Source of the DNA: an uncultured Candidatus Peribacteria bacterium
GTDB taxonomy: Bacteria; Patescibacteriota; Gracilibacteria; Peribacterales; Peribacteraceae
NCBI GenBank assembly: GCA_964649695.1
Contig: CAZYQO010000004.1
Span: forward strand, 89,394 to 153,393
Length of the DNA stretch: 64,000 nucleotides
Direction: 5' to 3'
Within the stretch, counting starts at the first letter, position 1. Each line of letters starts with the position of its first letter. The notes below the pieces were generated by a model. The model did not search any database, was not told the origin of the DNA, and was given only the letters and a program-made list of their open reading frames with translations. Both the position numbers and the translations under genes were made by a program. Positions 4,502-48,156 of the stretch are shown one piece after another.

Positions 4502-5893
4502 ATGGCTTTCACGAGCTTTACCTACCTGTATTTTCTCGCAATTGTCGTTGCGCTGTACTGGGCTGTGCGCAACAGGGTTGCCCAGAACGTCCTTTTGCTT
4601 GTAGCAAGTTACGTGTTCTACGGTTGGCTGACGCCATGGTATTGCCTCCTGCTGGCCAGCAGCACGATCGTCACCTATATCTGCCTGCATTGGCTGTGGA
4701 ATAGAAAGGAGGAAGAAAAAGAGCTCATCGCGGTTGTGGTGTGTGTGATTTTGAACATTGGAATGTTGGCCATCTGTAAATATTGGAATTTTTGGATCAC
4801 AGATATCCTAGCGACAACCAAATCTGTTGGCTGGAAATTATCAAAGGAAAGCCTGCAAATTGTTCTGCCGATCGGCATGTCATTTTATACATTGCAGGCT
4901 GTTGGCATCACTGTTGATGCTTATCGTAACGAAGTAAAAAGGCAATCTTTTTTGAATATTGCGCTGTTCCTAGCCTTCTTCCCCAAGTTAATTGCGGGCC
5001 CCTTCGAAAAAGCAAATGCATTCCTCGCTCAAGCCAACGCATCACGAACATTCGATGTAGGAAGTTTTTTGCAATCTTTTTCGTTGCTACTTGCAGGATT
5101 CTTGAAAAAATTAGTTATTGCAGAAAATATTAAAATTTATGTTGATCAAATCTTTTTTCTCAAAGATCCATCCATACCCTTGCTCTTGGTTGGCGGCGTG
5201 GGTTTTATGATTCAAATTTACGCTGATTTTTCTGGATATACAGACATAGCAAGAGGAAGTGCGCGCCTGTTGGGAATCAATCTAATGGAGAATTTTAATT
5301 CTCCATATCTAGCAGTCTCGCCATCTGATTTTTGGGGGCGCTGGCACATATCGCTCTCTCGCTGGTTTCGTGAATATATTTACATCCCCCTCGGGGGATC
5401 ACGTAGCCATGCAATCACTGAGATATGCTGGGCACTTATGATTACCATGTGTTTAAGCGGCCTCTGGCACGGCCCGACTTCAAATTATTTTGCTTGGGGT
5501 CTTTATCATGGAATGCTTATCTCCGCATATCTGACAATCGGCATCGGAGGTCACTGGAAACCAGTAACCGGCTTAGGCACCGCAATAGCAACAATATTAA
5601 TGTTAATTTGGACATTAATAGGCTGGATCATATTCCGCTGTAGCGATCTCGCTTGGCTTATTAAAATTATACTCAAATTTGATTGGCATCTCACGCAAGG
5701 TGAATTTTTAGTCACTTGGGTTTTTCTGTCTATGTATCTAGTGTACATACTGCCATGGCTGGGCTTAATAATCGCAGAACGCTTACCTGACAAATACATA
5801 TGGCTCAAGGCTCCGCTTAGGGCAACTATTGTGATGTGCATCGTTATTTTAGGAGAGGCAAACGTTGTTGATTTCATTTATGTTAATTTCTAA
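4502..5893 (+). CDS. MBOAT-family membrane-bound O-acyltransferase (AlgI/DltB/PatA-like)
   Basis: Polytopic, 463 aa, with a conserved MBOAT core (FWGRWHISLSRWFREYIYIPLGGSR ... SGLWHG). AT-rich codon usage unlike the flanking genes. Confidence 0.8.
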   Translation: MAFTSFTYLYFLAIVVALYWAVRNRVAQNVLLLVASYVFYGWLTPWYCLLLASSTIVTYICLHWLWNRKEEEKELIAVVVCVILNIGMLAICKYWNFWITDILATTKSVGWKLSKESLQIVLPIGMSFYTLQAVGITVDAYRNEVKRQSFLNIALFLAFFPKLIAGPFEKANAFLAQANASRTFDVGSFLQSFSLLLAGFLKKLVIAENIKIYVDQIFFLKDPSIPLLLVGGVGFMIQIYADFSGYTDIARGSARLLGINLMENFNSPYLAVSPSDFWGRWHISLSRWFREYIYIPLGGSRSHAITEICWALMITMCLSGLWHGPTSNYFAWGLYHGMLISAYLTIGIGGHWKPVTGLGTAIATILMLIWTLIGWIIFRCSDLAWLIKIILKFDWHLTQGEFLVTWVFLSMYLVYILPWLGLIIAERLPDKYIWLKAPLRATIVMCIVILGEANVVDFIYVNF

Positions 5894-7014
5894 TGGAAAC
5901 ACCAACATCACCACCGATCGAAAATCTCACAGCGAAGCAAGTGGAGCTGCCATCAAAAACTAATTTTCACCTTCCAACAGGCTCCGATACGCCTTCTGAA
6001 ACACCAGAAACGCAAAATGTGAATTCGTCACAATCTGGCACGGGATCCGCCCCTCTAAGGGTATCTGGGGGCATGGTAACTATTTTTGTATACTTAGCCT
6101 CGATCATTGTTGTAGGTCTTACAATCAACGCATTAGTTGTCCGGTTAAATGCACATTTCAATTTTATTGAGAAACAGCGTGAGATTTTAAATGACAAACC
6201 GCATGAAATTGTTATAGTTGGAAATTCTCAGTCAATTTTATTTTTAAATCCAACTATACTAAGCGCCGAATTACAAAGAAGTGTTGTTGAAATTCATGGA
6301 GGCGGCGTGCCTGCTGGCTGGTGGTATTTAGCAATAAAAAATATTGTGCTTCATTTAAACCCTAGACCAAATACAATTATTGTCCCTGTACTGCCGGAAT
6401 ATGTAGTAAATCCTAATGTGTTTCTCGTTAAATACGCGAAGGATCCTATCGCCGAAGAGCGCGAGCCTGAATTAGAAAAAATGGCGAAGATATCAAAGGT
6501 TACCAGTCCTCTTAGCGATTGGCTTTCGAGAACATTTTCTATGGTCAGAACAAATGACCAATTGCGACGTGTTTTGTATGAACAAATACGAGACTGGGAA
6601 ATCGCTTTGACAACAAAAAAAACAAAAACTGCCAACAAAACAATGAATGATACCTTGAAAGATGTGGCACCAAACCGTTTGCCCATCTCTTCGGTAGTGA
6701 AGTTGAAAAAGGAAGAACAAACCTTCGAAAACTCATTCATCCCCCTCATAGTCAATGTGGCAAAAAAGGGAGGAACTCAACTTATTTTTGTTCGTGTAAA
6801 GCAGCGTGATGGAAAAAAACAAGATGATATCCAAATAGCCTTCATGGACAAGATGCAATCTTTTCTGCAAGAGCAAGGCATCCCATATCTCGATTATTCA
6901 AATGATCCTAGAATTTCTGAAAAAGACTTTGTTGATGACAAACATCTATCAACAAACTCACAAAAAATATTTAATGCAATTCTCGCGCAAGATCTAGCAC
7001 CTTATTTGCGTTAA
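5893..7014 (+). CDS. membrane-anchored extracytoplasmic protein, probable MBOAT partner (DltD/SGNH-like, tentative)
   Basis: S/T/P-rich N-terminus, one TM helix (MVTIFVYLASIIVVGLTINALVV), then VIVGNSQS resembling a block-I Ser motif. Start overlaps the MBOAT stop. AT-rich. Confidence 0.4.
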   Translation: METPTSPPIENLTAKQVELPSKTNFHLPTGSDTPSETPETQNVNSSQSGTGSAPLRVSGGMVTIFVYLASIIVVGLTINALVVRLNAHFNFIEKQREILNDKPHEIVIVGNSQSILFLNPTILSAELQRSVVEIHGGGVPAGWWYLAIKNIVLHLNPRPNTIIVPVLPEYVVNPNVFLVKYAKDPIAEEREPELEKMAKISKVTSPLSDWLSRTFSMVRTNDQLRRVLYEQIRDWEIALTTKKTKTANKTMNDTLKDVAPNRLPISSVVKLKKEEQTFENSFIPLIVNVAKKGGTQLIFVRVKQRDGKKQDDIQIAFMDKMQSFLQEQGIPYLDYSNDPRISEKDFVDDKHLSTNSQKIFNAILAQDLAPYLR

Positions 7015-13975: not shown

Positions 13976-14047
13976 CTCCGTCGCCCCGATCCCCTGCGTG
14001 CGGGAGGAGGGCTTTTTTGTGATACACTTGTCGCAGTCCTCCTCTCC

Positions 14048-15140
14048 ATGGAAGAACTTCTGCACCATCTTCGGGAACTCAGCAGCGCCATCCACGTGGG
14101 AAAGGACTCTCTTTGAAGCCAGGGATGTCCCGGCAAAAATCGCCGATCTCGAAACAAAGACCACCGCTGCCGATATTTGGAATGATCAAAAGCGCGCCAA
14201 TGAGCTGTTTGCCGAGCTGCGCGGACTGAAGAAGCAATGGGAGCCCGTGGCATCCCTCGCAGCAGATGTGGACGGGCTGATCGAGCTTGTCGGTCAGGCC
14301 GATGCCGCCGATCTGCCCGATCTGCAGAAGGAATATGACCGCGCGATGAAACAGTGGAGCACGCTGGAGACCATGCTCTATCTGGGCGGCGAGTTTGACC
14401 ACTGCAACGCCTATGTGACCATCAGCGGCGGCGCCGGGGGTACCGAGGCGCAGGACTGGGCGGGGTTTTTGGTGCGCATGTACCTGCGCTACTGCGAACG
14501 CCAGGGATGGAAAACCGACATCATCGACAAAACCGACGGGCAGGAAGCGGGTGTGAAATCGGCGACGATCTATGTGGAGGGCGACCCGGCCTACGGCTAC
14601 CTCAAGTGTGAAAAGGGCACGCACCGCCTTGTTCGTCTTTCGCCGTTCAATGCAAAAAACCTGCGCCAAACGAGCTTTTCCCTGGTCGAGGTGCTGCCCG
14701 AAATCAAGGACGCCGGGGAGATCCCCATCGAAGAGAAAGACCTGCGCATCGACACCTACCGCAGCGGCGGAGCGGGCGGCCAACACGTCAACAAGACCGA
14801 GAGCGCCATCCGCATCACCCATATGCCCACGAACATCGTGGTCAGCTGTCAGACCGAGCGCAGTCAGATCCAGAACCGCGAGCGCGCGATGGCGATGCTG
14901 CGTTCGAAGCTCGCGGAGAAGAAACGGCTCGAAGAACTTGAACAGAAGAAAGACCTTCGTGGTGCCACACAGTCTGCAGACTTCGGTCAACAGATCCGCA
15001 GCTACGTGCTGCACCCCTACCAGATGGTCAAAGACCTGCGCACCGACTACGAAACCTCGCAGACCCAGGATGTCCTCGACGGCGACATCCAGGCGTTCAT
15101 CGATGCAGAACTCAAGCGACAGGCCAAGGAAGGCACGTAG
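14048..15140 (+). CDS. prfB: peptide chain release factor 2, requires programmed +1 frameshift at 14111-14116
   Basis: 0-frame MEELLHHLRELSSAIHVGKDSL then TGA; the +1 frame continues EARDVPAKIADLE.... SPF (RLSPF) and GGQ (SGGAGGQHVN) motifs are present. Confidence 0.9.
14111..14116 (+). other. RF2 autoregulatory +1 frameshift site CTT TGA
   Basis: CTT (14111-13) is followed by in-frame TGA (14114-16). A purine-rich AAAGGA lies 6 nt upstream. Confidence 0.85.
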
Positions 15141-15815: not shown

Positions 15816-15844
15816 TTGCACAAAATCTCAATTTGCGCTATAAT
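15816..15844 (+). promoter_or_regulatory. sigma70 promoter TTGCAC-17-TATAAT, 6 nt upstream of GTG 15851
   Basis: -35 at 15816-15821, -10 at 15839-15844. Confidence 0.6.
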
Positions 15845-15850
15845 AATAAC

Positions 15851-17749
15851 GTGAAACACCAAAACCGACTCCTCGACACTCTCCTGCCCATTGCCGTGCT
15901 TTTTGCATTCGCAGCGGGCTCCTGGTTGGTGCTGCATGCCGCACAACACGGATCTTTGCGGGCGTCGGTGGGCATCTGTGGCGATGGAACGGTGAACGAC
16001 GGCGAGGCCTGCGATGACGCCGATGTGGATGAGGCAGACGGCTGTACCACCAGCTGCACGATTTCCGCCGGCTGGACCTGCACGGGCAACCCCAGTGTGT
16101 GCAACCAGTGTGGCGACGGAACAAAGGTGTCCGCGGAGGCTTGTGATGACGGCAATGTGGCTGCGGCTGACGGTTGCAGCGCGACCTGCACCATTGAAAG
16201 CGGCTACAGCTGTACCGGCACAACGCCGAGTGTGTGTGATGCCTGCGGCAACGGCACCAAGGTGTCGGCCGAGGGATGCGACGACGGCAACAACACGGCG
16301 ACCGACGGCTGCAGCGCGACCTGCACGGTGGAGTCCGGTTGGACATGCACAGGCACCACGCCGAGCGTGTGCAACCACTGCGGCGACGGGACAAAAGTGG
16401 ATGCCGAAGCATGCGACGACGGCGACAACGATGCGGGAGACGGATGCAGCGCAACGTGTACGGTGGAAACTGGCTACGTGTGCAGCGGCTCGCCGAGCAG
16501 TTGCCACGCAACCGTGTGCGGAGACGGAGTGAAGGAAGGCAGCGAAGGCTGCGATGACGGCAATCACGCCAACGGCAGCCCTCTCGACGGCTGCAGTGCA
16601 AGCTGCACCATCCAATCCGGCGGCAGCTGCACCGGCACCACACCGAGCGTCTGCAGCATCTGCGGCAACGGAACGGTCGGCGGCACCGAGGCCTGCGATG
16701 ACGGGGATACCACGGCCGGCGATGGCTGCAGCGCGACCTGCACGGTGGAAGAGGGATACGTCTGCAGCGGCACGGCACCCAGTGCGTGCACCGTGTGCGG
16801 TGACGGCAGAAAAGTCGGCGCCGAGGAATGCGACGACAGCAACGCCACAAGCGGAGACGGCTGCAGCAGCATCTGCACGATCGAATCGAGCTGGAGCTGT
16901 ATCGGCAGCGGCAGCGGAGGACTGCTGAGTTCGTGCAACCGTTGCGGTGACGGCGTGAAGGTGGCTGCGGAAAACTGCGATGACGGCAACAGCGCCTACG
17001 GCGACGGCTGCAGTGCGACCTGCACGGTGGAAGAGGGATTTACCTGCACAGGCACCACACCCACGGTATGCGCAGGCATTTGCGGCGACGGCCTGGTGCG
17101 TGGCCAGGAAGGCTGTGACGACGGCAACACCACCGACGACGACAACGGCTGCTCCGCCACCTGCGTATCCGAAAAGGATTGGCTGTGTGTCGGCGAACCG
17201 AGCACCTGCACCCTGCAGCACTATCCCGGCGGCGGTGCCAATGCGGCGACGCGTGCAGCTTTCCCGTTGCCCGAACAAACCATGAAGAGCGCCGCACCCA
17301 AGAATCCCAACCAAGCTCTGGCTGCGCTCGCACAAACCAAAGTGCCGGTTCACATGATCACGACCGTTCTCGATTCCATCGCCCCTCCTGAAGGCTGCGT
17401 CACCGGCAAAAAGCATGCGGCTGCCCCCGTCCCCTTCCTCATCGAAGGCAACACGCGCGGCGTGATCTTCGCCGCCATGGCGGCCAAGCTGTGTCTCTCC
17501 ACGGCCGGCGGTGCACCCGTCCCCTACACCGACTTCGACGCGCACATGCCCTTTGGCTCCGAGATCCGCGCACTCTCCAACACCGGCGTGAAGATGGACG
17601 CCATGGATGCCCGCGGTTTTGCCACAGGCAAAATCTCTCCCGATCGGCCGATGAATGCCTTGGAACTCGTGCTCCTTATCGGCGGTCTGCAGAAGCGAGG
17701 ATACATTGAGTGGAAAGACGCCCAGCAGGCTATTGCACCCATGCAATAA
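15851..17749 (+). CDS. cell-surface protein with 9 cysteine-rich repeats (Myxococcus cysteine-rich repeat/DUF4215 type) and an SLH-like C-terminus
   Basis: N-terminal TM/signal (LLDTLLPIAVLFAFAAGSWLVL), then 9 copies of CG(D/N)G..x..E.CDDGN...DGCS.TC..E.G..C.G.PS.C. The C-terminal YTDFD...GFATGKISPDRPMNALE resembles an SLH motif. Confidence 0.8.
   Translation: MKHQNRLLDTLLPIAVLFAFAAGSWLVLHAAQHGSLRASVGICGDGTVNDGEACDDADVDEADGCTTSCTISAGWTCTGNPSVCNQCGDGTKVSAEACDDGNVAAADGCSATCTIESGYSCTGTTPSVCDACGNGTKVSAEGCDDGNNTATDGCSATCTVESGWTCTGTTPSVCNHCGDGTKVDAEACDDGDNDAGDGCSATCTVETGYVCSGSPSSCHATVCGDGVKEGSEGCDDGNHANGSPLDGCSASCTIQSGGSCTGTTPSVCSICGNGTVGGTEACDDGDTTAGDGCSATCTVEEGYVCSGTAPSACTVCGDGRKVGAEECDDSNATSGDGCSSICTIESSWSCIGSGSGGLLSSCNRCGDGVKVAAENCDDGNSAYGDGCSATCTVEEGFTCTGTTPTVCAGICGDGLVRGQEGCDDGNTTDDDNGCSATCVSEKDWLCVGEPSTCTLQHYPGGGANAATRAAFPLPEQTMKSAAPKNPNQALAALAQTKVPVHMITTVLDSIAPPEGCVTGKKHAAAPVPFLIEGNTRGVIFAAMAAKLCLSTAGGAPVPYTDFDAHMPFGSEIRALSNTGVKMDAMDARGFATGKISPDRPMNALELVLLIGGLQKRGYIEWKDAQQAIAPMQ
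15977..17209 (+). repeat. nine tandem coding repeats of 132-147 nt
   Basis: First Cys codons at 15977, 16109, 16244, 16379, 16517, 16661, 16796, 16943 and 17081. Recurrent gacggctgcagcgcgacctgcac strings. Confidence 0.85.
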
Positions 17750-17834
17750 GCCCAATAGAGGCAATCCGGACACTGACAACCTGATCCGACACCGTTACAG
17801 CGGACGCTCTGAAAAACACGGCGTCAATTGCAAC

Positions 17835-17861
17835 TTGCCCGGAAACATTCGGGCAAATTTT
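17835..17861 (+). terminator. hairpin TTGCCCG/CGGGCAA followed by ATTTT, after the repeat-protein gene
   Basis: 7-bp stem, 8-nt loop, short T run. Confidence 0.45.
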
Positions 17862-17870
17862 CATAACCCC

Positions 17871-17900
17871 TTGCGGATTGTCGATTCTCGCCCCTAGAAT
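17871..17900 (+). promoter_or_regulatory. promoter TTGCGG-18-TAGAAT for the histone-fold gene
   Basis: -35 at 17871-17876, -10 at 17895-17900. About 24-nt leader containing UUCCUUCCUCC. Confidence 0.5.
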
Positions 17901-17930
17901 GCCACCACTCTATTTCCTTCCTCCAGTTCT

Positions 17931-18101
17931 ATGTCTTACGTTGTGGCCTCCAAGGTCAAGGAACTCGTCAACAAGCACGGCATGATGGTCGCCGGCGATC
18001 TCGTCGATGGCCTCAGCTCCGCTGTTGAGGACATGCTCAAGAAGGCAGCTAAGCGCGCCGACGAGAACGGCCGCAAGACGGTTCGCCCCTGCGACCTCTA
18101 A
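17931..18101 (+). CDS. bacterial histone-fold protein (DUF1931 / Bdellovibrio HBb-like singlet histone), 56 aa
   Basis: MSYVVASKVKELVNKHGMMVAGDLVDGLSSAVEDMLKKAAKRADENGRKTVRPCDL fits the pattern SKVKxL...D.LS...E.....A...GRKTV..D. Has its own promoter and terminator. Below the ORF-track length cutoff. Confidence 0.75.
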   Translation: MSYVVASKVKELVNKHGMMVAGDLVDGLSSAVEDMLKKAAKRADENGRKTVRPCDL

Positions 18102-18128
18102 GCGTCTTCTCCTCACTTCGAGACAAAA

Positions 18129-18151
18129 ACCGTCCGCAAGGGCGGTTTTTT
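18129..18151 (+). terminator. rho-independent terminator after the histone-fold gene
   Basis: ACCGTCC GCAA GGGCGGT stem-loop followed by TTTTTT. Confidence 0.75.
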
Positions 18152-18284
18152 GTATCTCGCTGTGAGGACCCCGCGCGCATGCGAATCACCCTTCCCTTAA
18201 GGGGTTGCCTCATTTCGGCAAAGTCCGACTTCGTCAGATGCATTTTAATTTCATCTTTATCCCCTGCTGATATACTCCCCGTCC

Positions 18285-19622
18285 ATGCGCATTGCAGTGG
18301 TCGGCACCGGCTATGTAGGGCTCGTTTCTGCGGCCTGCTTCGCGGAACTGGGGCACGAGGTGATCGGCGTGGATATCGACGAAGCCAAAGTCGCCAAACT
18401 CAAAGAAGGCACATCGCCGATCTTCGAGCCGGGACTGGAAGAGTTGCTGCAAAAGAACATCGCAGCCAAACGACTGAGCTTTACCACCAACCTGCCCGAT
18501 ACCCTGCCGCAGGTGCAGGTGGTCTTCTCTGCCGTGGCCACACCTCCGGGCGAGGGATACCGCGCCGATCTGCGGGCGGTGTATTCGGTGATGGAAACCG
18601 TGGCACGCAACGTCGATCACGACCTCGTCTTTGTGAACAAATCGACCGTGCCGGTGGGCACCGGCAAGGAATGTGAAAAGCGCATGCATGCGATTCTTCA
18701 GGAACGCGGCGTTGCCCACCGGGTCGCCGTGATCAGCAATCCCGAGTTCCTCCGCGAAGGCCTGGCCGTCAGCGACACGATGATGCCCGACCGCATCGTG
18801 GTGGGCATCAACGATGCCGCAGGCTCACCGCAGGCTCCGAATGTCTGGGCACAGGAGGCGATGGAGGAGCTGTACCGCCCCATCACACGCATTGGCAAAC
18901 CGCTGCTGTTCATGAGCCGCGAAAGCGCGGAGATCGTGAAATACGCGGCCAACGCCTTCCTTGCCACCAAGATCAGCTTCATCAATATGACCGCGGAATT
19001 CGCCGAGGCTGTGGGCGGCGATGTACGCGAGATCGCCGCAGGGCTCGGGCTCGATGACCGCATCGGTCCGCGTTTCCTGCATGCCGGCATCGGCTACGGC
19101 GGCAGCTGTTTCCCCAAGGACGTGCGCGCTTGGCTGGCCACTGCACAGGAATTCGGCGTGCGGCTCCCGATTGTGGAAGCCACGCACGAAGCCAACCTGC
19201 GCACACGCGAGCGTTTTTTCCAGAAGATCACCGCCGCGCTCCCCGCAAACGCCACTGTTGCCGTGTGGGGGCTTTCCTTCAAACCGAAAACCGATGATCT
19301 GCGCGAAGCCCCCAGCCTGGAATACATCACCATGCTCGCGGATAAGGGACACACCGTGCGCGTGTTCGATCCGTGTGCGATGGACAAAGCAAAGCCGCTG
19401 CTGCCCGAAGGAATCGTCTTTTGCGCATCGCCGCTTGAAGCCGCAACGGGCGCCGATGCCACCGTTCTCGTGACTGAGTGGGATGAGTTCCGCGGCATCG
19501 ATCTGACCACCCTGAAAAAGACCATGAAGGGCAACCTGCTCTTCGATGGTCGCAATGTCTACGCACCGAAAGACGCCAAGGAAGCGGGCTTCATCTATCA
19601 GGGCGTCGGCACTGCGTTATAA
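18285..19622 (+). CDS. ugd: UDP-glucose 6-dehydrogenase
   Basis: MRIAVVGTGYVGLVSAACFAELGHEV.GVD...GGSCFPKD catalytic Cys motif. Confidence 0.9.
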   Translation: MRIAVVGTGYVGLVSAACFAELGHEVIGVDIDEAKVAKLKEGTSPIFEPGLEELLQKNIAAKRLSFTTNLPDTLPQVQVVFSAVATPPGEGYRADLRAVYSVMETVARNVDHDLVFVNKSTVPVGTGKECEKRMHAILQERGVAHRVAVISNPEFLREGLAVSDTMMPDRIVVGINDAAGSPQAPNVWAQEAMEELYRPITRIGKPLLFMSRESAEIVKYAANAFLATKISFINMTAEFAEAVGGDVREIAAGLGLDDRIGPRFLHAGIGYGGSCFPKDVRAWLATAQEFGVRLPIVEATHEANLRTRERFFQKITAALPANATVAVWGLSFKPKTDDLREAPSLEYITMLADKGHTVRVFDPCAMDKAKPLLPEGIVFCASPLEAATGADATVLVTEWDEFRGIDLTTLKKTMKGNLLFDGRNVYAPKDAKEAGFIYQGVGTAL

Positions 19623-35420: not shown

Positions 35421-36517
35421 AGCGCGAGGGAACGGAGGAACTCCGCGTAGGCGGGCAGGGTGACCGCGCGGTCAAAACGCGGCAGCACCGTGGCACGGGC
35501 TAAAGACGAAATGGCGTCGGCACGGGCGGGATCCATGGTGATCGTACGGATTTTGGCGGCGATGTCGGCGGGCGTGCCCGTCGTCAGAAGGCCGTTTTCT
35601 CCGGTGATCAGTTCGGGCATCAATCCGACGGGGGTCACCACCACGGGGATACCGCAGGCCATCGCCTCCAGCACCACGCGGGGGCCGCCCTCGCTCTTGG
35701 AACACATGACCAACACCTTCGCGGTGCACATGGCGTTCACCACATCCTGCGCCGTCGGCAGCCAGCCAAGGAAGCGCACACGCTCGGTCATGCCGCAGGA
35801 CGCACAGTACGCCTCGGCCTTTTTGCGCGCGGGACCATCGCCGATCACCACGGCCGAAAGGGTGGGCTCGCGACGAACAGCGGCAAGAAAATCGAAGAGT
35901 CCCTTGTTGGCCACCAGCCTTCCGCAGAATGCGGCGTCGACGGAGGGGGCTCCCGTCCGTTGCTGCAGCATCTGCGTGTCGAGATAGAACGACGGCACCA
36001 CCCGCAGTTTGTGCTTGGCCACACCCCATGACAGCAGCAATGCGGTGACATCGCGGTTCACGACGCGCACCGCGGTCGCACGGCGCGAAGCCCATGGCAG
36101 ATACAAACGCGAGAGCAATCTCCCCACCCATTCACCGATGTTTGCCGCCTTCGGCCAGCCCACCACATGGTGCACCTCCAACGCATACGGCACCCCGATC
36201 TCCCTGGAGAGGAGCCAGGCACCGATGCCGTTATAGAAGGGCGGATAGTCATGGGCAGTCATCACCCCATAGCGATGTTCCGCATGGAGACGTTTTCCCT
36301 CGCGCGCGATCCATAACGGCTGACGCCACAGCGACCACGGCGACGGATGGAAAAAGACGTTCTCCGGAAGTGCGGGATGCCGCTCTTCACGCGCCACACA
36401 TGGGCAGAGCACGTCGATGCGATCGAAATGTGCACTGAGCCCCTGCAAAGTCTGCAGGAATGCCCCTGCCTTGCCTGCCGCAAGGCTGCGGTCGCCGGAG
36501 AGCATCAGCAGATTCAT
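35417..36517 (-). CDS. GT4 glycosyltransferase
   Basis: VMCSKSEGGPRVVLEAMACGIPVVVTPVG. Confidence 0.75.
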   Translation of the reverse strand: MNLLMLSGDRSLAAGKAGAFLQTLQGLSAHFDRIDVLCPCVAREERHPALPENVFFHPSPWSLWRQPLWIAREGKRLHAEHRYGVMTAHDYPPFYNGIGAWLLSREIGVPYALEVHHVVGWPKAANIGEWVGRLLSRLYLPWASRRATAVRVVNRDVTALLLSWGVAKHKLRVVPSFYLDTQMLQQRTGAPSVDAAFCGRLVANKGLFDFLAAVRREPTLSAVVIGDGPARKKAEAYCASCGMTERVRFLGWLPTAQDVVNAMCTAKVLVMCSKSEGGPRVVLEAMACGIPVVVTPVGLMPELITGENGLLTTGTPADIAAKIRTITMDPARADAISSLARATVLPRFDRAVTLPAYAEFLRSLAL

Positions 36518-37593
36518 AGGAGACCCTGGAAAAGTGTCATGTGTTCATCGGCAACCGTCTCCCACGGGCGCTCGGGCAAAGGGGCGGCGGCACGGGCTGC
36601 CACAATGTCGTACTGGGCGGCGGCATCTTGTATCGCACGGGCGATCGCTTCGGGCGTGCGCAGCTGCTCGATGATCATGCCCTGACGCAGCGACAGACTG
36701 AGACCCGTTTCCTCCGTCAGGAGAACAGGTAGGCCGGTGCCACGCGCCTCGAGAGCCGCATTGGGGCTGATTTCGGTGATGGAAGGCAGCACGAGCAGGT
36801 CATGACTCAAAAACACCGTCTGCTTGTCCTGCCCCTGCGCGGGAGGAAGCACCGTGACACGGTCGGACAGGGTAAGCTCGTCGATCTGTACCAGAAGATC
36901 CTGCTGCAGAGGGCCGTCGCCGATGATGGTCAACGACATGTCGGGCAGCAACGTCATCGCGTCGATGAGTGCGGGGATGTTTTTGAACGCCACAAAGCGG
37001 CCGAGAAACAGCAACTTGAACGGGGTGTGGCGGCGATGGAGCACGGGCTGTGTCCCGGGCAGCGCATTTTCAATGACTCCGTGGATGGGGAGATGCGTGT
37101 AGAAACGCTCATACAGCTCCGCCTGGAACGCTGTGGAAAACACGATGTAGTCGAATGTCCTCAGCACGCTGTGCATGCGGCGCTGCACCCAGGTGGGACG
37201 CGTGTACCACTCGCTGAGTGTGGAGCGATCGCCGCTGTCCGTTGCACGCTCCCAACCGAAATCACCGCCGAGCCGCAGCACACGTCGAGGTCCCCTGACA
37301 CGCGAGAGCATGAGAGGCACGCCCACACTCACGCCCGAGAAGGCATAGATGATGTCGGTATCCTGACCCAGAAGACGCAGCATCTTCCGGTAGCGCCACC
37401 ACCGAAGCAGCATGCCGCCTCTGCGCGACACGCGCACCACCGGCCATTTTCCTTCCTCATCCTGCTGCTCGCCATAGGCCAGAACCGTCACCTGCGCACC
37501 GCGCGCCTGCAGGCGACCGGCCAGCTCCTTCACATACGTCGCAGGACCCCCGATTTCGGGAGGATAGATGCCTGTGGCCAGAAGGATGCGCAT
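36514..37593 (-). CDS. GT4 glycosyltransferase
   Basis: MRILLATGIYPPEIGGPATY... and LVLPSITEISPNAALEARGTGLPVL. Confidence 0.75.
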   Translation of the reverse strand: MRILLATGIYPPEIGGPATYVKELAGRLQARGAQVTVLAYGEQQDEEGKWPVVRVSRRGGMLLRWWRYRKMLRLLGQDTDIIYAFSGVSVGVPLMLSRVRGPRRVLRLGGDFGWERATDSGDRSTLSEWYTRPTWVQRRMHSVLRTFDYIVFSTAFQAELYERFYTHLPIHGVIENALPGTQPVLHRRHTPFKLLFLGRFVAFKNIPALIDAMTLLPDMSLTIIGDGPLQQDLLVQIDELTLSDRVTVLPPAQGQDKQTVFLSHDLLVLPSITEISPNAALEARGTGLPVLLTEETGLSLSLRQGMIIEQLRTPEAIARAIQDAAAQYDIVAARAAAPLPERPWETVADEHMTLFQGLL

Positions 37594-46938: not shown

Positions 46939-48156
46939 ATGGCCAAATCCCCCCTCCAGGCACGGGCAGACTTCCCCCAGCTCTCACGCCAGGTGGGCAG
47001 CCACGCCCTGCTGTATCTCGATTCTGCGGCCACCAGCCAAATGCCCTCCCCTGTCTTGGAAGCCATGGACGCTTTCGAGCGCAGCCACCGGGCAAACGTC
47101 CATCGCGGCATGCACATGCTTGCTGAAGAGGCGACCGATGCCTACGAAGGCGCCCGCGAAACGGTGCGCCGGTTTGTGGGTGCGGCGCATGCCGATGAAA
47201 TCGTCTTCACCAAAAGCTGTACCGAAGCCATCAACATCGTCGCGCGCGGCATGGACAGCGGCATGCAGAAGGGCGACGTGATCGCACTTTCGATGCTCGA
47301 GCACCACAGCAACATCGTGCCGTGGATGCAGCTGAAGGAGCGAACGGGCGTCACCCTGCAATGGATGGATATCAACGACGACGGTTCGCTCAACGAGGAA
47401 TCGCTGCAACGCGCGCTGGACACGCCGCACCTACGCCTAGTGGCAATCACCGGCATGAGCAACGTGCTCGGCACTCGCCCCGATCTGCATCGCATCATCA
47501 CTGCAGCGCATGCGCGCGGCGCACAGGTGTTGGTCGACGCCGCACAGCTCATCGCCCACGACGCGGTGGACGTGCAGTCGCTCGATGTCGATTATCTGGC
47601 CTTTTCCGGCCATAAACTGTTTGGCCCCACGGGCATCGGCGTGCTGTACGCCAAGCGCGCCTTGCTCAAGAACCTGCCTCCGCTGCTGGGAGGTGGAAAC
47701 ATGATCGAAGAGGTGACACTGGAAGGCTTCACCACCAACGATGCGCCGTTGAAGTTCGAGGCAGGGACACCGCCCATCACCCAAGCGGTAGGTCTCGCCG
47801 CCGCCATGGATTGGCTCGAGCAGTTCCCGCTCAGCGAGCGCCGCGCGCACGAGCGCATGCTCTATGAAAAGGCCATCGCCACGTTGAGCACTGTCGAGGG
47901 ACTGCGCATTCTCGGATCGCACAACAATGAGGGGGTGATCAGTTTTGTGGTAGAGGGTGTGCACCCCCATGACCTCACAAGCATCCTTGGGCAAGAAGGT
48001 GTATGCCTCCGCGCCGGGCACCACTGCACCCAGCCATTGCACCGCCGGCTCGGCATCACTGCTTCCACGCGTCTGTCGCTGTCGCTCTACAACACCTGCG
48101 ACGAGCTCGAACGCCTCCCCGAGGCCATCACCCAAAGCATCCGCACATTGTCCTAA
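46939..48156 (+). CDS. sufS: cysteine desulfurase, SufS type
   Basis: RANVHRGMHMLAEEAT..., PLP-Lys motif SGHKLFGPTGIG, and catalytic Cys in RAGHHCTQP. Confidence 0.85.
   Translation: MAKSPLQARADFPQLSRQVGSHALLYLDSAATSQMPSPVLEAMDAFERSHRANVHRGMHMLAEEATDAYEGARETVRRFVGAAHADEIVFTKSCTEAINIVARGMDSGMQKGDVIALSMLEHHSNIVPWMQLKERTGVTLQWMDINDDGSLNEESLQRALDTPHLRLVAITGMSNVLGTRPDLHRIITAAHARGAQVLVDAAQLIAHDAVDVQSLDVDYLAFSGHKLFGPTGIGVLYAKRALLKNLPPLLGGGNMIEEVTLEGFTTNDAPLKFEAGTPPITQAVGLAAAMDWLEQFPLSERRAHERMLYEKAIATLSTVEGLRILGSHNNEGVISFVVEGVHPHDLTSILGQEGVCLRAGHHCTQPLHRRLGITASTRLSLSLYNTCDELERLPEAITQSIRTLS

Follow-up and report, generated by a model that had tools for sequence, protein, structure and literature searches.

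A 56-residue histone-fold protein at a conserved locus of Candidatus Peribacteria with affinity to face-to-face alpha3 histones

Bacterial histones have been recognized only between 2023 and 2025, and work on them has so far centered on Bdellovibrio and Leptospira. Histones of the alpha3 type carry a third helix of 3-4 residues and an alpha2 helix that is 4-5 residues shorter than that of the nucleosomal histones (Schwab et al. 2024, PMC11390915). One group among them, named face-to-face (FtF), has R48 and N52 (logo numbering) conserved at the dimer-dimer interface, along with K16 and the motif RxTxxxxD, whereas HBb-type 'bacterial dimers' lack R48 and N52 (PMC11390915). In the Leptospira histone HLp, the tetramer interface is built by R49, N53 and R55, and DNA is wrapped around the tetramer over a length of about 60 bp (Hu et al. 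2025, Nat Commun, PMC12701072). The reported bacterial range of FtF histones covers Spirochaetota, Planctomycetota, Bdellovibrionota and Myxococcota (PMC11390915, PMC12701072), and proteins of the DUF1931 family lack the DNA-binding residues (PMC12701072). Here, we analyzed a gene for a 56-residue protein in a 64-kb stretch of DNA (hereafter, the window) from an uncultured Candidatus Peribacteria bacterium, a member of the candidate phyla radiation (CPR). Our analysis indicates that the product has a histone fold, that it is closer to the FtF histones than to HBb, and that it is encoded by a real gene with a strongly conserved promoter.

Comparison with proteins of known structure provides the main evidence for the histone identity. 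In a single-sequence search of the Protein Data Bank (PDB), the best match was HLp of Leptospira perolatii (9QT0; E 1.4e-9, 43% identity), ahead of HBb/Bd0055 of Bdellovibrio bacteriovorus (8FVX, 8CMP; E ~4e-6) and HTkC (TK1040) of the archaeon Thermococcus kodakarensis (9F2C; E 1.5e-4). A family profile built from 68 homologous proteins returned the same three proteins in the same order (E 7.5e-17, 2.4e-13 and 8.3e-12, respectively), followed by the Methanopyrus kandleri doublet (2.9e-5) and the nucleosomal archaeal histones (~2e-3; HMfA, 2e-3). The AlphaFold2 model of the single chain (confidence score pLDDT, 82) contains alpha1 at residues 6-15 and an alpha2 of 22 residues at 24-45, an L2 loop with RKT, the 'RD clamp' R48-D55, and an alpha3 that has shrunk to a few residues at the C-terminus. 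In a Foldseek search with this model, HLp was matched over all 56 residues (template modeling score, TM, 0.94; root-mean-square deviation 0.9 A), HTkC and HBb followed at TM ~0.89 and the nucleosomal histones at ~0.6, and every match was a histone. As modeled, the protein is a histone fold of the layout alpha1-L1-alpha2-L2-alpha3, and the view of the initial annotation, that this is a singlet bacterial histone-fold gene, is borne out by the profile matches in the PDB and by the structural match to HLp.

Assignment to a subfamily hinges on a small set of residues. The chain ends at L56, one residue past the clamp residue D55, so that alpha3 is truncated, and the RxTxxxxD motif reads R48-K-T50-V-R-P-C-D55. 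The FtF logo positions K16, R48, N52, R54, T56 and D61 fall on K10, R42, N46, R48, T50 and D55 with exact spacing: as in the logo, R42 and N46 are four residues apart, and the step from K10 to R42 is 32 residues. All six residues are invariant across the 68 family members, and the complete signature was found in 62 of the 80 closest loci. Of the HLp residues, those that build the tetramer interface, R49, N53 and R55, correspond to R42, N46 and R48, whereas the DNA contacts A13, S14, K15, K17, G29 and T57 correspond to A6, S7, K8, K10, G22 and T50, most of the contact residues being identical in the two proteins (seven of nine when HLp K21 is included on the strength of the adjacent K15 and the family-consensus K14). 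HLp is the best match by sequence, profile and fold, has the same fold length, and likewise ends one residue after the clamp Asp. The two differ in their hosts (Spirochaetota versus CPR), in the 7-residue N-terminal extension of HLp that the window histone lacks, in the L2 loop (RTT in HLp, RKT here) and in the neighboring genes (SMC and MAP in Leptospira, prfB and tRNA-Ser here); furthermore, structures are available for HLp (PDB 9QT0/9QT1/9QT2) and wrapping has been shown for it, whereas the window histone is known from its sequence and a single-chain model. HTkC shares the alpha3-truncated fold (TM 0.89), RxTxxxxD, the alpha1 lysine and the equivalent of R48, but comes from an archaeal host and is 36-38% identical to the window histone. 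HBb (also PDB 9EZZ) resembles the window protein in being a singlet with a short alpha2, an alpha1 that opens with an S-K motif, RKTV and the RD clamp, at 38-40% identity, but carries S and D at the positions of R42 and N46, has a longer C-terminus, and acts as a dimer that bends DNA (or binds it end-on). The pair that is absent from HBb-type proteins is thus invariant in this family, and HBb scores below HLp. From these sequence features, we file the window protein as an FtF-type (HLp-like) alpha3 histone that appears closer to the FtF group than to HBb, and is not clearly HBb-like.

The initial annotation had assigned the protein to a 'DUF1931 / singlet' family exemplified by both Aquifex Aq_328 and Bd0055/HBb. 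The singlet histone part of this assignment stands; however, two families were merged in it, the protein is not of the Aq_328 type, and it is closer to HLp than to HBb. The DUF1931 proteins (Aq_328, PDB 1R4V; the Thermus protein, 1WWI) belong to the same histone-fold superfamily, and the window protein gives a weak, partial match to their profile (PF09123; 17.2 bits against a gathering score of 21.8, E 0.006, model positions 21-53, that is, 33 of 138). They consist, however, of two fused folds of ~140 residues from which the DNA-binding residues are gone, whereas the window protein is a 56-residue singlet that has them; its signature for DNA binding and oligomerization (RKT, the RD clamp, the S-K and K of alpha1 and the Gly of L1) is present throughout. 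In published cluster maps, the alpha3 histones lie well apart from DUF1931. We considered a DUF1931/Aq_328-like pseudodimer identity and ruled it out on the singlet length, the PF09123 score below gathering and the retained DNA-binding residues. The conflation is probably explained by the PDB name of HLp, 'DUF1931 domain-containing protein', which is automatic and misleading. A smaller correction applies to the C-terminal motif recorded as GRKTV..D, in which GRKTV and the Asp are present but are separated by three residues (GRKTV...D).

Several lines of evidence mark the 56-residue open reading frame (ORF) as a real gene that evolves under purifying selection. It runs from ATG to TAA, and its translation, MSYVVASKVKELVNKHGMMVAGDLVDGLSSAVEDMLKKAAKRADENGRKTVRPCDL, is identical to the one given in the initial annotation. 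The ratio of nonsynonymous to synonymous substitution rates was 0.08-0.52 against 23 orthologs, with 7 additional ortholog comparisons being saturated at synonymous sites. The G+C content of third codon positions (GC3) is 0.81 in the sense frame, compared with 0.74-0.78 in the adjacent genes and 0.59 in the antisense frame, which holds the 68-residue ORF that appears, as previously stated, in the mechanical ORF list. A related contig, L081, encodes an identical histone with 8 nucleotide substitutions, all 8 of them at third positions and synonymous; in the antisense frame, the same contig has gained a stop codon and 15 amino-acid changes. Two further public contigs are 100% identical to the window across 16411-19239, and public gene callers predict the 56-residue gene on all three contigs. 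The 60-residue cutoff of the ORF track thus conceals the histone gene and displays a spurious antisense ORF instead.

In some Peribacteria, the orthologous locus, with prfB upstream and ugd and an epimerase gene downstream, encodes a 119-residue head-to-tail fusion of two alpha3 folds (56 residues, a 7-residue linker and again 56 residues), and ~45 protein clusters of such doublets were found. Each half is 57-59% identical to the window histone, and the second half still starts with Met. The equivalent of R42 is replaced by Ala in the first half, whereas the second half retains both the Arg and the Asn. The AlphaFold2 model of the doublet (pLDDT 96.6, predicted TM 0.87) has beta-bridges at L1 and L2, with alpha3 at residues 53-56; it matches single-chain histone pairs (1F1E of Methanopyrus, the Melbournevirus doublets, single-chain H2A-H2B and 1WWI) at TM 0.6-0.7, and for each of its halves the TM with HLp is 0.95. 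Given the bridges in the model and the matches to single-chain pairs, two such folds, and hence two copies of the window-type fold, are predicted to pack as a histone handshake pair. These doublets differ in origin from those of the DUF1931 family. No second histone paralog or doublet was found inside the 64-kb window, and no description of alpha3-type doublets was found in the literature searched.

The histone gene comes with its own transcription signals, as stated in the initial annotation: the promoter TTGCGG-18-TAGAAT, the GC-rich hairpin with T6, and the organization as a self-contained monocistronic unit all agree with our analysis, both signals being conserved among related loci. The promoter was read directly at 17871-17900, with the -10 hexamer ending 30 nt before the ATG, and the layout TTGC..-16/18-TA.AAT recurs in 36 of 37 related loci, the -10 hexamer ending 29-35 nt before the ATG, despite diverged surroundings. 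At 6-10 nt upstream of the -35 hexamer, the AT content is 75%, against a locus background of 49% (36 loci), and the A/T-rich tract may act as an UP element. Pyrimidines make up 73-93% of the final 30 nt ahead of the ATG in 36 of the 37 loci, and a Shine-Dalgarno-like motif was found in the leader of none of the 37; if transcription starts ~7 nt after the -10 hexamer, the 5' untranslated region would be ~24 nt long. The terminator region folds at -25.8 kcal/mol (z = -4.2; none of 200 shuffles folds as well), and a hairpin followed by a T-run is present in 33 of the 37 loci, with 33 distinct stem sequences. An A-run ahead of the stem potentially makes the terminator bidirectional. Because the downstream gene in most loci is a convergent prfB, the histone gene is monocistronic. 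A second hairpin between the upstream gene and the promoter, specific to the window, is probably the terminator of that upstream gene, which encodes a Cys-rich repeat protein, and lies outside the conserved histone unit. One Peribacteria metagenome-assembled genome (MAG) holds a divergent histone copy (L011, 4212-4382; MHFTVSSAIKE...) that is devoid of the conserved promoter, the pyrimidine-rich leader, the terminator and the upstream element GTCAATTG discussed below; this copy may have arisen as a paralog or by relocation of the gene.

Some features of translation initiation in the window were recorded alongside the leader. Shine-Dalgarno motifs are scarce (6 of 51 long ORFs), and 14 of 35 genes with an ATG start have a TAnnnT box whose end lies 6-9 nt ahead of that codon, with a sharp positional peak; examples are TATACT at 18271-18276, 8 nt before the ugd ATG (18285), and the genes at 36514-37593 (minus strand) and 46939-48156 (plus strand). 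The position of these boxes suggests widespread leaderless mRNAs. The histone gene is exceptional in this respect, with a conserved pyrimidine-rich leader of ~24-30 nt.

Further upstream, the promoter region contains a conserved element, GTCAATTG. The window contains it once, and 32 of 40 Peribacteria loci share its position and orientation; over 369 kb, ~7 other copies were counted, where ~10 would be expected by chance in total. In the alignment, the element is invariant and its flanks are unconserved. Two classes of distance between the element and the -35 hexamer occur, 40-42 nt (20 loci) and 50-52 nt (6 loci), and they are one helical turn apart, which would place the center of the element near -81.5 or -91.5 if transcription starts 7 nt after the -10 hexamer. 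Such phasing is typical of upstream activator sites, and GTCAATTG looks like a phased activator or operator site. Three other readings were examined and rejected. The element is neither part of a minus-strand promoter (the complement contains TTGAC) nor the -35 hexamer of a second, upstream promoter on the plus strand, since the alignment shows no conserved -10 hexamer at 16-19 nt on either strand; the spacer between GTCAATTG and the -35 hexamer is not a conserved RNA or DNA hairpin, with a mean z of -0.6 over 26 loci and only the spacer of the window folding well (z = -4.7). As a side observation, the window contains CAATTG at 4539, 6559, 15314, 17825, 25369 and 51911, the copy at 17825 being the conserved one at the histone promoter. 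These 6 sites compare with 21.8 +/- 4.6 in shuffles, but the counting of palindromes in the shuffles is uncertain and we draw no conclusion; a deficit, if real, may reflect restriction-site avoidance, in which case the copy at the histone promoter would stand out more.

The family is widely conserved within one bacterial class. A homolog search returned 86 clusters, mostly of exactly 56 residues and 57-93% identical to the window histone, and all named close homologs come from Candidatus Peribacteraceae or Peregrinibacteria. At least 40 species-level Peribacteria genomes keep a single copy of the gene, at the conserved locus. Outside the CPR, proteins of DPANN archaea (Micrarchaeota, Iainarchaeota, Aenigmatarchaeota and Undinarchaeota) come closest, being 55-63% identical and carrying the same K-R-N-R-T-D signature; these are followed by proteins of Planctomycetota, Kofleriaceae and Bdellovibrionales. 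Such sequence proximity suggests transfer of the histone gene between CPR bacteria and DPANN archaea. The initial annotation had raised the question of HU and integration host factor (IHF) genes elsewhere in the genome. In tblastn searches with queries from E. coli and B. subtilis, neither was found in the 64-kb window, which is ~5% of a genome, whereas the annotation of the complete PER-ii Peribacter genome includes hupB (HU). The notion that the histone replaces HU in the Peribacteria class is rejected on this ground. Thus, the Peribacter histone coexists with HU, as HBb does in Bdellovibrio, in contrast to Leptospira, which is without HU.

Taken together, we consider it likely that the gene encodes an HLp-like FtF alpha3 histone that forms a DNA-wrapping tetramer and is expressed from a self-contained transcription unit; tetramer formation, wrapping and abundance, and with the latter the role of a highly expressed nucleoid protein, are what we infer. 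In this proposal, two histone chains would pair through the handshake, and two of the dimers would meet face to face, held by R42, N46, R48 and the C-terminal D55-L56, in the manner of HLp and HTkC. This tetramer would bind DNA without sequence preference via the N-terminus of alpha1 (A6-S7-K8, K10, K15), with additional contacts from the L1 and L2 loops (G22, K49-T50), would wrap roughly 60 bp, and would help to compact a genome of ~1 Mb alongside HU. A sigma-70-type promoter preceded by an A/T-rich tract would drive transcription, a factor binding to GTCAATTG, ~80 or 90 bp before the start, would probably modulate it, and the transcript would end at the intrinsic terminator.

Several observations weigh against this reading. 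The tetramer and the wrapping are read from residue conservation and from the similarity to HLp, and three of the six HLp interface residues differ in the window histone (S52 to E45, T61 to C54 and F63 to L56). HTkC has Glu at the position of N46, so that the R/N rule is not absolute, and the profile bit scores of HLp (64.9) and HBb (53.7) are not far apart. Both Pfam histone models remain below their gathering scores, PF00808 (CBFD_NFYB_HMF) with 18.4 bits against 21.4 and PF00125 with 14.8 against 26.4, and the NCBIfam histone models likewise matched only under their curated thresholds; PF00808 reaches E<0.01 in 35 of the 68 family members. The Pfam models are built mainly on longer, nucleosomal-type folds, and we excluded such matches from the membership evidence and used the profile search of the PDB and the fold comparison instead. 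The profile match anticipated in the initial annotation therefore came from the PDB, where it is strongly significant, and not from PF00808 or PF09123. On the side of the promoter, TTGCGG agrees with the E. coli consensus TTGACA at 3 of 6 positions. For this reason, a consensus promoter scan did not report the histone promoter on the plus strand, a miss that the conservation in 36 of 37 loci marks as a threshold effect rather than as absence of the promoter. Finally, with HU present in a complete Peribacter genome, the histone is not necessarily the chief nucleoid protein.

The divergence from the HLp interface at half of the positions also speaks for an HBb-like 'bacterial dimer', that is, a protein that would form dimers only and would bend DNA sharply or coat it end-on, without a wrapping FtF tetramer. 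HBb is a strong match by both profile (E 2.4e-13) and fold (TM ~0.89), and by sequence it outscores the archaeal FtF protein HTkC. Nevertheless, R42 and N46 are invariant in the family, whereas bacterial dimers lack R48 and N52 (PMC11390915) and HBb carries S and D instead; HLp ranks first on every measure; and the window chain stops right after the clamp Asp like HLp, whereas HBb extends further. Moreover, the nearest non-CPR relatives (DPANN and Bacteriovoracia/Planctomycetota/Kofleriaceae) share the signature and belong to lineages reported to hold FtF histones. A dimer of the HBb kind is, in our estimate, unlikely.

The presence of HU in the complete Peribacter genome bears on another alternative, in which the protein has a histone fold but acts as a specific regulator of low abundance or as an adaptor between proteins, roles that have been proposed for the DUF1931 pseudodimers and for some halophile histones. 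Schwab et al. cautioned that prokaryotic 'histones' are not all global organizers (PMC11390915), and the dedicated GTCAATTG suggests regulated rather than constitutive expression. Against such a role stand the retention and invariance of the HLp DNA-contact residues, the single copy at a conserved locus in the at least 40 species-level genomes, and the abundance, as nucleoid proteins, of the characterized relatives HBb and the Leptospira histone (PMC10627809), so that we rate it as quite improbable. The most radical alternative denies the histone altogether and assigns the function to the antisense 68-residue ORF or to a non-coding RNA. This ORF is longer than the sense ORF and figures in the standard 60-residue ORF list, and a strong hairpin flanks the region; but its GC3 is well below that of the sense frame, the substitutions in L081 are all synonymous in the plus frame and yet create a stop codon in the antisense frame, 86 homologous protein clusters are conserved in the plus frame, and no Rfam match was found in the histone region. 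As far as sequence analysis reaches, this alternative is refuted. Returning to the HLp-like FtF histone as the preferred reading, a broader scenario can be outlined, which we put forward tentatively, as a possibility with the odds against it. In Peribacteria, an archaeal-type FtF histone, probably exchanged with co-occurring DPANN archaea, would serve as core chromatin and would be kept at a fixed locus under a dedicated regulator acting at the helically phased GTCAATTG; in one subclade, it would have been fused into an obligate 119-residue pseudodimer, paralleling the viral and archaeal doublets.

The features of the locus are listed in Table 1. Peribacteria MAGs supplied the best matches for the histone, prfB (up to 80% identity), UDP-glucose dehydrogenase and the epimerase; prfB lies 0.2-3 kb from the histone gene in every Peribacteria locus examined, and tRNA-Ser(CGA) is usually located upstream of the histone gene. 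In most loci, prfB is convergent to the histone gene, whereas in window-like loci it lies upstream on the same strand, and an inversion or rearrangement therefore separates the two layouts. The Cys-rich protein encoded directly upstream of the histone unit is built of repeats of the form DGCSATCT.E..(W/Y/F).C(T/S)G and has an N-terminal hydrophobic segment. It had no tblastn match in any related locus, and its gene is thus outside the conserved neighborhood. Elsewhere in the window, two adjoining long ORFs at 4502-7014 have GC3 values of 0.46 and 0.33, as opposed to ~0.7-0.85 in the rest; this segment, which also contains 2 of the 6 CAATTG sites, may be a horizontally acquired island.

Table 1. 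Features of the histone locus, with related loci; positions refer to the window unless a locus identifier (L) is given
Feature	Position	Strand	Basis or remark
56-residue alpha3-truncated (FtF-type) histone, coding sequence including stop	17931..18101	+	ORF, coding signal, selection, PDB matches, model, invariant residues
Antisense 68-residue ORF, not a gene	17910..18116	-	Low GC3; stop codon in L081
GTCAATTG, histone-promoter-specific conserved element	17823..17830	+	Putative site of a transcription factor
Spacer hairpin, window-specific	17835..17856	+	Terminator-like in scan; absent from L081
A/T-rich tract AAATTTTCATAA, UP-element-like	17855..17866	+	Immediately 5' of the -35 hexamer
-35 hexamer TTGCGG	17871..17876	+	Read directly; TTGC[AG]N in 36/37 loci
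-10 hexamer TAGAAT (18-nt spacer)	17895..17900	+	Read directly; TA(G/A/C)AAT in 36/37 loci
Pyrimidine-rich leader (80% C+T), no Shine-Dalgarno motif	17901..17930	+	Conserved leader composition
Intrinsic terminator, stem AAAACCGTCC / GGGCGGTTTT, GCAA loop, T6	18126..18151 (stem 18126-18135 / 18140-18149; T6 18146-18151)	+	Fold and conservation
prfB (release factor 2)	13998-15140	+	380 residues from GTG, versus 352 annotated in PER-ii
638-residue Cys-rich repeat protein	15833..17749	+	Between tRNA-Ser(CGA) and the histone gene
119-residue doublet loci	L033 6001-6360; L039 5231-5590; L045 1877-2236; L047, L048, L049; L046 (partial)		
DPANN relative loci	L029, L032, L035-L038, L040, L041, L044, L050 and other archaeal loci		

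How much of this is new depends on the level considered. The description of the gene as unannotated in the initial annotation holds for the 60-residue ORF track but not for public resources: gene callers predict it, JGI labels several of its homologs 'histone H3/H4', and Supplementary Table 1 of Hocher et al. 2023, which lists histone-fold proteins, includes ALM10226.1 of Candidatus Peribacter riflensis and several proteins from Peregrinibacteria MAGs. The family was therefore already listed in 2023 and is not categorically new, although in the complete PER-ii Peribacter genome of 2016 the ortholog is labeled 'hypothetical protein'. The supplements of Schwab et al. 2024 contain no entries for Patescibacteria or Peregrinibacteria, the main texts of three key papers on bacterial histones do not mention the CPR, and the literature searched yielded no paper that pairs CPR or Patescibacteria with a bacterial histone or histone fold, or that deals with the regulation of CPR histones. 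The points that seem fresh and worth a note are the FtF signature in a class of the CPR, the conserved promoter with the dedicated GTCAATTG, and the natural doublets.

With the subfamily assignment proposed here, the range of bacteria reported to hold FtF histones grows with the Peribacteria locus: an entire class of CPR bacteria, ultra-small and uncultured, appears to keep an FtF-type histone at a fixed locus, beside HU and under a strongly conserved promoter. The close relatives in DPANN archaea point to transfer of histone genes between two groups of episymbionts. Furthermore, the compact 56-residue protein and its natural doublets would provide material for testing what drives the tetramerization of alpha3 histones and the wrapping of DNA.

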